DNA from: a bacterium
GTDB lineage: Bacteria; Auribacterota; UBA3054
Direction: 5' to 3'
Assembly: GCA_017554565.1 (NCBI GenBank)
Contig: JAFZID010000197.1
Coordinates: forward strand, 1 to 43,714
DNA length: 43,714 nucleotides
Under the pieces are notes generated by a model. It saw only the letters and a program-made list of their open reading frames with translations, did no database searches and had not been told where the DNA came from. A program made the translations under genes and the position numbers. Shown here piece after piece: positions 4,927 through 10,831 of this stretch (its first letter is position 1; each line of letters starts with the position of its first letter).

Positions 4927-8255
<3,329 letters not shown>

Positions 8256-8273
8256 ATTTATTGCGTTGTTTCA

Positions 8274-8501
8274 AATTCGTGGCACAGTGTGCCACGAATT
8301 CAAAAACGCTTAACAGCTTGCAAACGCGTAACTTCAAATTCGTGCCACAGTGTGGCACGAATTCAAAAACGGTTAAACGCTTGCAAACACGTCACATCAA
8401 ATTCGTGGCACAGTGTGCCACGAATTCAACAAAAAGGCCTCAAGTACATAAGTTGTTCATAATTGCCAACTTCAAATTTGTGCCACACTGTGGCACAAAT
8501 T
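8274..8501. repeat. Array of four perfect 27-bp palindromes (13-1-13) with 36/36/48-bp spacers
   Basis: 8274-8300 AATTCGTGGCACA-G-TGTGCCACGAATT; 8337-8363 AATTCGTGCCACA-G-TGTGGCACGAATT; 8400-8426 identical to copy 1; 8475-8501 AATTTGTGCCACA-C-TGTGGCACAAATT. Confidence 0.95.
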
Positions 8502-8633
8502 TGATTTTTGTTTTTCTGTCTCTTTTTTCCCTACACAAATTTACCGAAAAGGAGGACTTGCAACTTTTTTGCTTTTTATACAATGAGGTTAGACAATAAT
8601 ATTTTTAAGCCTTAACAAAGGAGCGTCGTATTT

Positions 8634-9659
8634 ATGAACCCACCAAATTATATATTCGATAAAAACAAATCTGAGAAGATTTATTCCTCCATACGATCTT
8701 TTGTAATCACTGCTCAAAACAAAATATATACAGCTGTTAATTCTGCCATGATTGTCGCATATTGGGAAATTGGAGAACAGATATTAAAACATTGCGGGGA
8801 AAACGATAGAGCAGAATATGGTCAAAACCTCCTTAAATATCTTTCTAGTCGATTAACTCCCGAGTTCGGAAAAGGCTTTGGCGAAAGCAATCTGCGTAGA
8901 ATGCGTCAATTTTATTTAGCATACCCTGTGCGCGATTCTTTATATCCCGAACTTAGTTGGTCGCATTATCGTTTGCTAATGAAGATCACAGATAAAGCTG
9001 CTCGTGATTTCTACACGGAGGAATGCGTCAAGGCCGCCTGGAGCGTTCGGCAGTTGGAGCGGCAGATCAACACGATGTATTATCAGCGGCTTCTCGCCAG
9101 CAAAGACAAAGATGCCGTTAGAGCTGAAATACAAAAAACCGAACCAAAACCGGAATATGAAAAGGTCGTCAAGAATCTTTATGTCATGGAGTTTTTACAA
9201 ATAAAGCCTGACACCAAAGTTTATGAAGAAGAAATTGAGCAGGCGTTAATCGACCACTTGCAGCAATTTCTTTTGGAGCTTGGGCGCGGTTTTTCCCTTG
9301 TCGCCCGGCAAAAGCGTTTTACGCTGAACGGACAGGATTTCTTTATAGATCTGGTGTTTTACAACTATATCCTGAAATGTTTTGTCTTGATCGATTTGAA
9401 AACGACCAAGCTCACGCATCAGGACTTAGGGCAAATGCAAATGTATGTTAATTTCTATACGAGAGAATTGATGAATGAAGGCGACAATCCGCCCATCGGA
9501 ATCGTACTATGTGCCGAGAAAAACGACGCTGTTGTCAAATACACATTGCCCGTAGATAACAACCAGATCTTCGCATCAAAGTTTTTAACCTGCCTTCCTA
9601 CGGAAGAAGAATTAAAAAGAGAATTGCGCCTGGACTCGTTTATAAAAATCGAGAAATAA
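8634..9659 (+). CDS. yhcG: YhcG/DUF1016 family PD-(D/E)XK nuclease
   Basis: AYWEIG, RAEYG, GKGF..SNL..MRQFY, LSWSHY, WSVRQLERQI, FLLELGRGF, IDLVFY..LIDLK, GQMQMY and NPPIGIVLC. AAGGAG RBS at 8618-8623. AT-richer than its flanks. Confidence 0.93.
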   Translation: MNPPNYIFDKNKSEKIYSSIRSFVITAQNKIYTAVNSAMIVAYWEIGEQILKHCGENDRAEYGQNLLKYLSSRLTPEFGKGFGESNLRRMRQFYLAYPVRDSLYPELSWSHYRLLMKITDKAARDFYTEECVKAAWSVRQLERQINTMYYQRLLASKDKDAVRAEIQKTEPKPEYEKVVKNLYVMEFLQIKPDTKVYEEEIEQALIDHLQQFLLELGRGFSLVARQKRFTLNGQDFFIDLVFYNYILKCFVLIDLKTTKLTHQDLGQMQMYVNFYTRELMNEGDNPPIGIVLCAEKNDAVVKYTLPVDNNQIFASKFLTCLPTEEELKRELRLDSFIKIEK

Positions 9660-9664
9660 AAAAG

Positions 9665-10831
9665 CTATCTGCTGCAGATCTCTTCCACCATGTGGACAAA
9701 GTTTTCTTTGCCGGTTTTGATGTTGAGAGAGACTTTGAGATAGTAAACGGGAGGGGGATTCAGTTCGAGGCCGGCTCTCACGGAGAAGCGCACGGCGTCT
9801 TTTTCCGTGATGAGGATAGCCTGGCAGTCGAAGTTTTTGGCGGTCTCGTAGATCTTCTCTATCTCGTAGCGCATGAAGCGGTGATGATCGGCGAAGAAAC
9901 GCTTGGCGTTTATTTTCGCGCCGTTCTTTTCCAGGATAGCGACGAAGCCCTCGGGTTGGGCGATGCCGGTGACGACCATGATGGGAAGGCCCTGGAGAAG
10001 CGAGACGGGAGATTCTTTTTCCGTGTGGACGCTTATGAGTTTGTCGGGCTCGTACTGGCAGGTGAGGATGTCGGCTTCTTTGTTGTAGAGACGGATGTCG
10101 GCGACGAGGTCTTCGTATTTCTCTTCGGTAAGATTTTCGGCTTTGGTGATGAAGATATGGTCGGCCCTGCTTAGGCCCTCTATGGGCTCTCTCAGAAGGC
10201 CGGCTGGCAGGATCCGGCCGTAGCCGAAGGGACAGTTGGCGTCGATCAGGACGATGTCTTTCTGGCGGCGCATTCTCAGGTGCTGCATGCCGTCGTCCAG
10301 GACTATGGTGTCCACGCCGAATTCCCGCATGGCATAGCGGGCTCCCCGCACTCTGTCGGGGTCGGTTATGACCACGACGTTCTTAAGCTCCTTGGCGAGC
10401 ATGTAGGGCTCGTCGCCGGCAATCTTGGGGGATAAGAGCAGGTTCTTGCCGTCGCAGACGACCTTGGTCTTGTTGCTGAAATCCTTGTGCTTCAGCCTGA
10501 AGCGCAAACTCGGAGAATGGGATTTGTAGCCGCGGCTAACGATGGCGACTTTTCTTCCGCCCTTGGACAAGGCCTGGGAAAGCAGCGCCACGACGGGCGT
10601 TTTGCCGGTGCCGCCCACGGTGATGTTGCCGACGCTTATGACGTAGCAGCCGGGCCAGTAGCGTTTGCAGTAGCCCTTTCTGTACATGGCGTTGCGGATG
10701 GAAACGATCCCGCCGTAAAGTTTGCCGAGGACTCTCAGGACAGGCCAGACGAGGTAGCGGCGCCAGGTGGTGTCGTTACCGGAAACGAGCCGTTTCCATT
10801 TCTGCTCTCTTGAGAGTTTGTTTTTTCTCAT
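9665..10831 (-). CDS. lpxK: Tetraacyldisaccharide 4'-kinase
   Basis: ISVGNITVGGTGKTP, SRGY, GDEP, LDDGMQH, LPAGLLREP, F.DHH and TEKDAV motifs. Confidence 0.95.
   Translation of the reverse strand: MRKNKLSREQKWKRLVSGNDTTWRRYLVWPVLRVLGKLYGGIVSIRNAMYRKGYCKRYWPGCYVISVGNITVGGTGKTPVVALLSQALSKGGRKVAIVSRGYKSHSPSLRFRLKHKDFSNKTKVVCDGKNLLLSPKIAGDEPYMLAKELKNVVVITDPDRVRGARYAMREFGVDTIVLDDGMQHLRMRRQKDIVLIDANCPFGYGRILPAGLLREPIEGLSRADHIFITKAENLTEEKYEDLVADIRLYNKEADILTCQYEPDKLISVHTEKESPVSLLQGLPIMVVTGIAQPEGFVAILEKNGAKINAKRFFADHHRFMRYEIEKIYETAKNFDCQAILITEKDAVRFSVRAGLELNPPPVYYLKVSLNIKTGKENFVHMVEEICSR

Follow-up and report, generated by a model that had tools for sequence, protein, structure and literature searches.

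Palindromes upstream of a DUF1016/YhcG gene as apparent extragenic copies of a palindrome carried within the genes of this family

Why would a bacterium keep four nearly perfect palindromes in a row ahead of a gene for a predicted nuclease? The question is raised by a stretch of 43,714 nucleotides (nt) from a member of the Auribacterota (UBA3054; GenBank assembly GCA_017554565.1, contig JAFZID010000197.1), hereafter the window, in which an array of palindromes at positions 8274 to 8504 precedes yhcG, a gene of the DUF1016/YhcG family (8634 to 9659, forward strand, 341 amino acids). Judged by sequence, these units are copies, lying outside the gene, of a palindrome proper to the DUF1016/YhcG family. 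Most of its genes hold this site within their coding sequence, in a loop just ahead of an (S/P)W(S/G)H motif. We tentatively propose that the palindrome is a cis-acting site that the protein encoded by the gene itself recognizes, one that usually lies inside the gene and has here been moved upstream and amplified. No description of a family-wide in-gene palindrome was found in the literature searched, whose coverage left out subscription journals and supplementary files.

The array consists of four near-perfect palindromes of 27 to 33 bp, spaced by 63, 63, and 75 bp. A repeat search of the window revealed four copies with perfect arms of 13 to 16 nt flanking a single centre base, and Tandem Repeats Finder reported 8270 to 8429 as a repeat of period 63 (2.5 copies, 89% matches). 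The consensus of the units, to which no strand is assigned, is AAATTCG-NNN-CACA-S-TGTG-NNN'-CGAATT. Unit 1 (8274 to 8300, centre 8287) reads AATTCGTGGCACA G TGTGCCACGAATT and is predicted to fold as a single-stranded DNA hairpin at −13.3 kcal/mol (z −6.5). Unit 3 (8400 to 8426, centre 8413) is identical to it, both carrying the core TGG/CCA. In unit 2 (8337 to 8363, centre 8350) the variable core is swapped to TGC/GCA (GTGCC...GGCAC) and the opposite arm compensates. Unit 4 (8472 to 8504, centre 8488), with perfect arms of 16 nt, has the TGC/GCA core, C as its centre base, and, in the outer block, a C-G pair turned into T-A by compensatory change. Each difference between units has its counterpart in the other arm. 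Folded as single strands, the four sequences range from −13.3 to −16 kcal/mol (z −6.5 to −8.4). Shuffles lead one to expect 0.01 occurrences of the core pattern in the window, where it occurs four times; it is absent from the rest of the 2.17-Mb assembly (86.55% complete), all four matches being those of the array. A contig from one run, X1, joins 8270 to 8397 and skips two 63-bp units, which is either a natural two-unit variant or an assembly collapse.

Where else do these palindromes occur? A blastn search of the arrays against all other loci showed that type-A units are identical over 27 of 27 nt to the palindrome inside the yhcG gene of L026, and that type-B units match the in-gene palindromes of L032 and L066 (31 of 32 nt when a TTTC flank is counted). 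The in-gene sequences with the 27/27 identity are those of rumen Firmicutes relatives. In the same search the array spacers had no homology to yhcG genes beyond the palindrome. The initial annotation had taken the units for external copies of the variable segment inside the adjacent gene; the observation was confirmed, the units being copies of the in-gene palindromes of relatives, and the in-gene segment of the window's own gene matches no unit. The genome encodes two other DUF1016 paralogs with palindromes of their own, one on contig 63 (L141) with two in-frame copies 69 nt apart (SYRPQLVDD and AYRPQLVDD) and one on contig 108 (L140) with a single in-gene copy. These differ from the palindromes of the array, and a comparison of them with the array cores gave no match.

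The in-gene palindrome is widespread in the family. Among 80 genome loci of close relatives, 77 showed the SWSHY motif and provided 43 distinct 29-mers located directly before the codon of its first S. Thirty-four of these had at most 3 mismatched pairs out of 14, 28 had at most 2, and 6 were perfect; among those that deviate are the window's genus, L090, L092, and two rows matching another or a broken gene. At loop positions 3 and 6/7, alleles such as IRHTLCAEL, IRDTLCPEL, IRSTLWSEL, IRGTLCHEL, IQDALRPEL, and KRYALRSEL vary just as DNA complementarity demands, so that the symmetry dictates which amino acids can pair there. In an analysis of 40 distinct 33-mers, 91.8% of the cells were paired and 8 of the 14 pairs had changed on both sides (64 cells), a result matched by none of 500 shuffles, while controls with a slid register were paired in 16 to 41% of cells. 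We extended the comparison to 53 nonredundant genome genes, including distant members of the IPWGHN type from the window's phylum, and called a site palindromic when its arms reached at least 9 nt with at most one mismatch. The site was palindromic in 40 of the 53 genes and was the longest palindrome of the gene in 37; in 30 it was significant against synonymous recoding (P ≤ 0.01). A second set of 80 loci from viral contigs yielded, after exclusion of 17 without the motif and removal of duplicates, 52 distinct genes that were 32 to 75% identical to the query, of which 38 had arms of at least 9 nt (including ICQTLSGKL, with arms of 16 nt). In total, 78 of 105 distinct DUF1016 genes carry a palindrome at the loop preceding SWSHY. 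The statement in the initial annotation that these proteins have a palindromic, often repeated I-x-Q/A-T-V/L-S-x-E/K/Q-L/F segment at this place is borne out.

The palindrome lies at the same loop in subfamilies that are about 30% identical to each other, and relatives of yhcG occur in records titled Firmicutes, Bacteroidales, Spirochaetales, and Desulfovibrionaceae, in addition to the window's phylum. The nearest proteins outside the genus are 77 to 91% identical, and the named ones come from Ruminococcus, Clostridia, or "bacterium." Some of the residues encoded by the palindrome are highly variable: positions 101, 104, and 105 of the loop are among the most variable internal positions of the protein (entropy of 2.2 to 2.6 versus a mean of 0.92).

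What happened to the in-gene copy of the window? The corresponding segment (8926 to 8954, forward strand) occupies the 29 nt before the S codon of SWSHY and encodes VRDSLYPEL (8928 to 8954). It keeps 7 of 14 pairs in the family register, a level reached by 40 of the 998 centres in the gene; the complementarity of 7 out of 9 about centre 8940, to which the initial annotation had drawn attention, is correct and is reached by only 2 of about 1,000 gene centres. With a predicted hairpin of −0.8 kcal/mol (z 0.06), the segment has no hairpin potential left. The same decay was found in all four sequenced genes of the genus, which keep 7 (window), 6 (G068), 5 (G067), and 4 (L142) of the 14 pairs. These genes are under purifying selection (dN of 0.004 versus dS of 0.42 in the C-terminal part). 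In an independent lineage, L092, the in-gene copy was also lost, and the gene's 5' end has a palindrome with arms of 16 nt that covers an ATG. The 27/27 identity, the four decayed genes, the purifying selection, and L092 all fit the suggestion made for this locus that a cis-acting palindrome moved upstream while its in-gene copy decayed. The proposed correlation between internal loss and external copies was weak: an external copy accompanies 2 of about 8 independent losses (this genus and L092), compared with 1 of the 40 genes in which the palindrome is retained.

The opposite direction of transfer had been suggested as well. The upstream units would be silent cassettes from which gene conversion copies sequence into the loop of the gene, as happens with those of pilS or vls. 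The units can indeed be read as variants of the loop peptide (QIRGTVCHEF, QIRATVWHEF, QIRGTVCHEF, and QICATLWHKF), readings that follow from the sequence, and their spacing of 63, 63, and 75 nt puts all four in one frame. Arrays also hold several alleles that exist in-gene elsewhere, and palindrome types change position among Escherichia coli alleles, which indicates that exchange among copies occurs in the family. Nevertheless, in 4 of 4 genes of the genus the in-gene segment is nonpalindromic and matches no unit, and the homology between unit and gene covers only 27 to 32 nt, with flanks that share none. Furthermore, no alternative allele at 8920 to 8960 was present in the contigs of four runs, which drop rare variants. 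A cassette reservoir thus received no support in the window, and we regard it as very improbable.

Within the phylum sample, the array is confined to one genus. Its palindrome was found in 5 of the 79 genomes sampled from the phylum, all of them from the window's genus, G000 included. Four of 8 congeners carry it (G066, G067, G068 on two contigs, and G072), always behind the same tRNA-Arg. Wherever the assembly continues, yhcG comes next after the array (G067, both G068 contigs, and the metagenome contig L142, which has six units ahead of the gene). The contig of G066 ends within the array, and that of G072 contains two units followed by DNA other than yhcG. The number of units per array is therefore 2, 4, 4, at least 5, and 6. 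A metagenome scan with an array-specific pattern found two loci only. The cores vary between and within arrays (TGGC, TGCC, CGCC, GCAC, GTAC, GCCC, and GTCC), all of them self-complementary: 91.1% of the cells are paired and 23 cells changed on both sides, with no shuffle of 500 reaching the score. Across 24 units from 6 genomes, conservation was 0.99 to 1.00 in the inner blocks, 0.89 to 0.92 in the outer blocks, 0.64 to 0.65 in the core, and 0.51 in the spacers. In this noncoding DNA a particular sequence is thus conserved, and not pairing alone.

The spacers (e.g., 8301 to 8336 in the window and 1723 to 1768 in L134) are of two types, short (about 36 nt) and long (about 48 nt), which alternate with the palindrome types in G066 and G067. 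They carry recurrent GTTAA(A/C) and TTGCAAA / TTGGGCACAC motifs, and TTGGGCACAC resembles half a palindrome. On contig 22 of G072 (L015, 4645 to 9001; L139, 1 to 1560), an island with about 6.8 kb of unannotated open reading frames (ORFs) comes after the two units; two of these ORFs were scanned against Pfam without a match. This island terminates in a duplicated tRNA 3' half plus terminator and resembles a tRNA-targeted integration in which the array, but not yhcG, was carried along or captured.

Other placements of the palindrome were found across the family. L108 and L123 have two copies each, in L103 the copy is shifted by 37 nt, and in L095 an upstream copy is a short gene fragment (..PNWNALRSNLSWTH..). 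The low-GC metagenome contig L143, which has no yhcG within its 1.7 kb, shows two such palindromes (one imperfect) at 830 to 930, 125 to 220 nt upstream of an AbiEi antitoxin gene. In a Ruminococcus locus (L024), an identical 22-bp palindrome, ACATGAAGAGCGATCTTCATGT, stands on either side of yhcG (720 to 741 and 1908 to 1929) and may mark the ends of a mobile cassette.

Several copies are found in E. coli. The yhcG gene of strain K-12 (b3220; NC_000913.3, L224 9828 to 10955) contains three tandem in-frame palindromes at gene nt 303 to 329, 338 to 372, and 375 to 413, which encode EIHQTMSGEL, GIPQTPSAEFP, and KIWQTLSAKSF and have arms of 13, 16, and 18 nt, respectively. A fourth copy lies 16 nt past the stop codon. 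Among six E. coli alleles, the in-gene copy number varies from 1 to 3 and divergence falls within a stretch of about 190 nt whose end is at the palindromes. In one of these alleles the first palindrome is different, the K-12 type stands second, and the third is lost. In the record of O157:H7 strain DEC4E (L225), annotated as frameshifted, 80 nt spanning palindromes 2 and 3 are missing, and the deletion ends at or beside palindrome copies. The downstream copy shows a symmetric double change (TGCAG/CTGCA to TCCAG/CTGGA) as well as flips of the centre base. Probes matched over at least 80% of their length in 3,415 (variable region) and 3,679 (C-terminal part) of 5,426 genomes, a modest difference; an allele of the K-12 type is common to most E. 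coli.

Is the palindrome also a place where the gene recombines? We located maximum-likelihood breakpoints in the alignment, where column 423 or 417 corresponds to the right end of the palindrome; the recombinant pairs are few and partly related. Between the genes of the window and G068 (L114-L018), divergence is 0.30 upstream of column 423 and 0.068 downstream. The pair L034-L049 splits at the same column (0.19 versus 0.02), and L114-L020 and three pairs involving L073 break at column 417. In four breakpoint pairs the dS of the 5' part was 2.5 to 9 times that of the 3' part, while in four control pairs it was about equal, indicating that the two parts of the gene differ in history rather than in selection. 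Local conflicts exist between the trees of the N- and C-terminal parts, and separate clades have the same few core alleles. Homology between L034 and L049 begins 44 nt before the ATG, suggesting that the gene moves as a small cassette.

Such dynamics are what one would expect if the palindrome were structure-prone DNA that perpetuates itself, with quasipalindrome correction keeping the symmetry, slippage multiplying the copies, and a permissive loop tolerating the outcome. No dedicated reader would be involved, and any benefit would be indirect, as a hotspot for change in the loop and the 5' module. Quasipalindrome-templated mutation is established in E. coli, and it would account for the symmetric double changes within that species and for the centre base that flips between G and C in arrays and genes. 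The variable copy number (1 to 3 in E. coli genes, 2 to 6 in the genus, and the 80-nt deletion), the recurrence of a few core alleles across clades of the gene tree, the hypervariable positions 101, 104, and 105, and the recombination boundaries at the site all go in the same direction. What this account leaves unexplained is why the palindrome occupies the same loop in subfamilies of about 30% identity, why noncoding arrays have near-invariant blocks and drifting spacers, and why two lineages that lost the in-gene copy (this genus and L092) have one elsewhere in the cassette. Moreover, perfect palindromes of such length are usually lost, not kept. We consider self-perpetuation as the whole explanation to be rather unlikely, and self-templated maintenance of the palindrome may instead act alongside recognition of the site, explaining the symmetric changes and the dynamics of copy number.

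The surroundings of the array bear on what kind of element it is. In the window, a tRNA-Arg (ACG) gene at 8142 to 8218 on the forward strand (found with ARAGORN; Rfam tRNA score of 62.8 bits) is followed on the same strand by its intrinsic terminator, a hairpin and then a T run (8226 to 8248). Just past this terminator starts a low-GC island of about 1.4 kb (8257 to 9659, forward strand; the left edge is approximate) with a GC content of 0.32 to 0.46, against 0.55 to 0.61 in the flanks, inserted between the terminator and lpxK. The island holds only the array, a promoter-like region, and yhcG, without a cas or integrase gene among its ORFs. In the congeners G065 and G071 the terminator leads straight into lpxK; judging from these empty sites, a single small cassette that lacks an integrase was acquired, comprising the array, the promoter, and the gene. 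A promoter-like element, TTGCAA and TACAAT separated by 15 nt, lies downstream of the array at 8558 to 8584 (forward strand). The arrangement TTGnnn-15-TAnAAT is common to the window, G067, G068, and L142; a sigma-70 scan that required a spacing of 16 to 18 nt listed no promoter between the array and the ATG. A GGAG precedes the yhcG ORF.

Another reading is that the palindrome acts as RNA, as a pause or processing site in the transcript or as an element of translation or stability that limits the expression of the nuclease. The predicted hairpins are stable (DNA energies of −13 to −16 kcal/mol, with z of −6.5 to −8.6), the palindrome of L092 covers an ATG, the downstream copy of E. coli is placed where a 3' stabilizer or terminator would be, and unit 4 of the window is followed by a T-rich run and fits the pattern of an intrinsic terminator. 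The units of the genus, however, come after the tRNA terminator and before the promoter-like element and are probably outside the yhcG mRNA, which makes an RNA hairpin less likely here. In addition, complementarity extends to the very centre, leaving a "loop" of 1 nt that a hairpin cannot use, and the in-gene copies lack a U run behind them. The mismatches within genes do not clearly favor G-T/T-G on the sense strand (32) over A-C/C-A (23), counts that are not decisive for RNA or DNA. A role as an RNA hairpin seems improbable to us.

Nor does the array appear to belong to a known class of repeats, such as a clustered regularly interspaced short palindromic repeat (CRISPR) array, a repetitive extragenic palindrome (REP) or bacterial interspersed mosaic element (BIME), an integron attC array, or a stack of terminators or insulators. 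Evenly spaced palindromes beside a RecB/Cas4-like nuclease fold, and a unit 4 with the terminator pattern, could suggest one. Nevertheless, in an Rfam scan of 8000 to 9700 (E up to 1) the tRNA alone was above its gathering score, six other rows being far below theirs, and units 1 to 3, which lack a T run, do not fit a terminator. The spacers of a CRISPR array should not be repeated, while here they are (87% and 67% identical between units), and the island has no cas gene. A REP or BIME would be dispersed, and all four matches of the assembly are in this array. As for attC sites, the units are 63 to 75 bp apart with no ORFs between them, and no integrase is present in the 1.4-kb island. We consider a known class extremely improbable. 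The 13-mer GGCACACTGTGCC also appears in papers on Aca1 and Aca10, which we took as a coincidence.

Could the protein itself be the reader? The product of yhcG matches PF17761 (E value of 3.4e−45, 154 bits against a cut-off of 32.8) and PF06250 (5.1e−55, 186 bits against 32.5), as well as the profile of the PADLOC candidate defence family PDC-S02 (3.2e−140). The C-terminal domain has a PD-(D/E)XK fold (NucS, 2vld_B; Z 11.5, root mean square deviation [rmsd] of 2.8, 105 aligned residues), and D239 and K256 are invariant in 42 sequences. A search of the Protein Data Bank by sequence (E up to 1) gave no match. Models of the full-length protein and of the N-terminal domain (predicted local distance difference test [pLDDT] scores of 80.4 and 90.5, respectively) were compared with known structures. 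With Foldseek, the N-terminal domain matched Noc bound to DNA (7ol9_A, probability of 1.00), and 8 of the top 16 rows of a VIA comparison were ParB, Spo0J, KorB, SopB, VirB, or P1 ParB. These include ParB-parS (6s6h_B; Z 7.3, rmsd 4.9, 103 aligned), Spo0J (1vz0_A; Z 7.0, rmsd 2.8, 90 aligned), KorB (8qa8_A; Z 5.7, rmsd 3.8, 97 aligned; and 1r71_A; Z 5.5, rmsd 3.5, 93 aligned), SopB (3mkw_B; Z 4.9, rmsd 4.8, 103 aligned), VirB (3vwb_A; Z 4.2, rmsd 3.1, 63 aligned), and P1 ParB (1zx4_A; Z 4.0, rmsd 5.2, 92 aligned). Most of the ParB-family structures matching the domain were solved on palindromic sites. Weak sequence matches agree with this, one to the HTH_ParB profile of Pfam and one to the Noc profile of NCBIfam (TIGR04285), with an E value of 0.005 (16 bits against a cut-off of 315) for the latter. 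In the models, the residues encoded by the palindrome (99 to 107) form a loop between helices 84 to 96 and 109 to 116, which gives the segment the structural location that the initial annotation had asked for. YhcG is also predicted to be a symmetric dimer: the homodimer model scored 0.64, against 0.04 for the best control, the runs agreed in at least 85% of contacts, and the pLDDT of the partner was at least 67. Of proteins with solved structures, 20 of 30 homo-pairs reached the mark used, as did 1 of 23 single chains; these counts are only rough with the custom alignment employed. The predicted interface runs along helices 12 to 82.

Since the site stays with a gene that moves between phyla, its reader must be either universal machinery or encoded in the cassette. 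Recognition by YhcG is favored by the conservation of blocks in noncoding units, the palindromic form, the predicted ParB-like dimer, and the relocation of the site upon its loss from the gene. In the scenario that we tentatively favor, the site normally lies within the coding loop, and in this genus it would have been moved to the 5' flank of the cassette and amplified to 2 to 6 copies, the in-gene copy being left to decay. A YhcG dimer would read the site through its N-terminal domain, which in the models resembles domains that bind palindromes, by means of the invariant outer AATTCG and inner CACA-S-TGTG blocks. Recognition would probably involve a hairpin or cruciform form, or a requirement that the arms be identical. 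Binding could lead to autoregulation, to self-marking, or to nicking that promotes exchange, and it would give a potentially toxic nuclease gene a self-contained control wherever the cassette lands. Binding or cutting at the site would also concentrate breakpoints, changes of copy number, and allele differences at the palindrome. That YhcG binds or cuts the site, and to what effect, we infer from these models and patterns.

Several observations weigh against recognition by YhcG. A single array holds several variable cores, each self-complementary, and one protein must tolerate them all; plain binding of a dimer to the duplex would then be insufficient, and a hairpin or cruciform, or self-templated correction, would be needed. 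The array is 55 to 290 nt upstream of the promoter-like element without overlapping it and is thus not a classical operator. No clear palindrome was found at the site in 13 of the 53 genome genes and 14 of the 52 viral-contig genes, mostly without a detected external copy. The HTH_ParB profile was matched at 21.6 bits (E value of 2.4e−4), under its cut-off of 22.6, and at a Z of about 7, as for the N-terminal domain, the arrangement of helices can by itself produce a match between helical models. Regarding recombination, L040-L071 breaks at column 489, 66 nt downstream of the palindrome. Contigs of the runs X5 and X6 match the window without a difference between about 8400 and 9058 and then show about 42 differences (about 7%) over 9059 to 9650, a strain-level mosaic boundary within yhcG about 105 nt downstream of the decayed palindrome. 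Finally, the breakpoints could merely reflect the highly conserved stretch coding for ELSWSHY that adjoins the palindrome.

Which known systems does this arrangement resemble? The closest would be a ParB-family protein with a palindromic site in its own gene. parS sites lie inside genes, including spo0J/parB itself. ParB-parS, Noc-NBS, and KorB-OB, in which dimeric helix-turn-helix proteins bind short palindromes, share with YhcG a palindromic site, the possibility of clustered copies, and, if the model matches hold, a similar DNA-binding fold, and as in ParB systems the site lies in the coding sequence of the putative binder. Unlike ParB, YhcG lacks an N-terminal CTPase domain and is fused to a PD-(D/E)XK nuclease instead; its putative site is 27 to 33 bp long, against 13 to 16 bp for ParB sites, and has a hypervariable self-complementary core, a fixed position in the proteins of the family, and extragenic arrays. 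Homing endonuclease genes are likewise mobile single-gene nuclease cassettes with a long, pseudopalindromic, gene-linked site and recombination tracts starting from it. However, homing sites are destroyed by insertion of the gene, while that of YhcG is intact within it, and cleavage is only putative here. We found no empty allele bearing the site, the empty sites of G065 and G071 being without a palindrome.

Short palindromes with compensatory changes, sometimes clustered, are also known from REP/BIME, which are associated with RAYT transposases, and from the Rickettsia palindromic elements, which are translated in proteins. These elements occupy many loci per genome, while the YhcG palindrome is limited to one family and one position across phyla, and the array is unique in the genome. 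Quasipalindrome mutagenesis produces the symmetric double changes and centre flips, but as a mutational process it does not predict a conserved position or conserved sequence blocks. Intragenic hypervariable modules, such as the C termini of Rpn nucleases, offer another comparison, yhcG likewise being a defence-associated PD-(D/E)XK gene with a local variable region bounded by repeats. The hsdS shufflons described in PMC9881135 belong to the same group of comparisons, and according to that paper DUF1016 genes are enriched beside the targets of programmed inversion (odds ratio of 17.4). Unlike hsdS shufflons, the YhcG locus has no invertase or long inverted repeats, and a single local palindrome serves as the repeat.

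A further step would join recognition, cutting, and repair. In such a self-referential module, one stretch of 27 to 33 nt would serve twice, as code for a surface loop beside the DNA-binding helices and as the site recognized and nicked or cut by the dimeric nuclease. A cut in its own palindrome, or in that of a rival allele, would set off templated repair, which would rewrite the loop symmetrically, multiply the site into arrays, and exchange the 5' dimerization module among alleles. We regard this proposal as speculative and unlikely. If true, self-referential cutting would amount to a homing-like self-diversification by a candidate defence gene that is widespread and found also in E. coli K-12.

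With at least 8,000 candidates in one search, the DUF1016/YhcG family is very large; PADLOC lists it as a defence candidate, and it is common in restriction-modification and mobile contexts. A palindrome fixed across subfamilies of about 30% identity implies that some residues of the protein are there because of a constraint acting on the DNA. This affects how conservation and "hypervariability" are read in these proteins, and it gives the family a concrete cis element. The genus of the window provides a natural experiment in this respect: a site that was relocated and amplified while its in-gene copy decayed argues that the site, and not the loop peptide, is what is maintained. With three copies inside yhcG and one downstream of it, E. 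coli K-12 makes the question directly testable.

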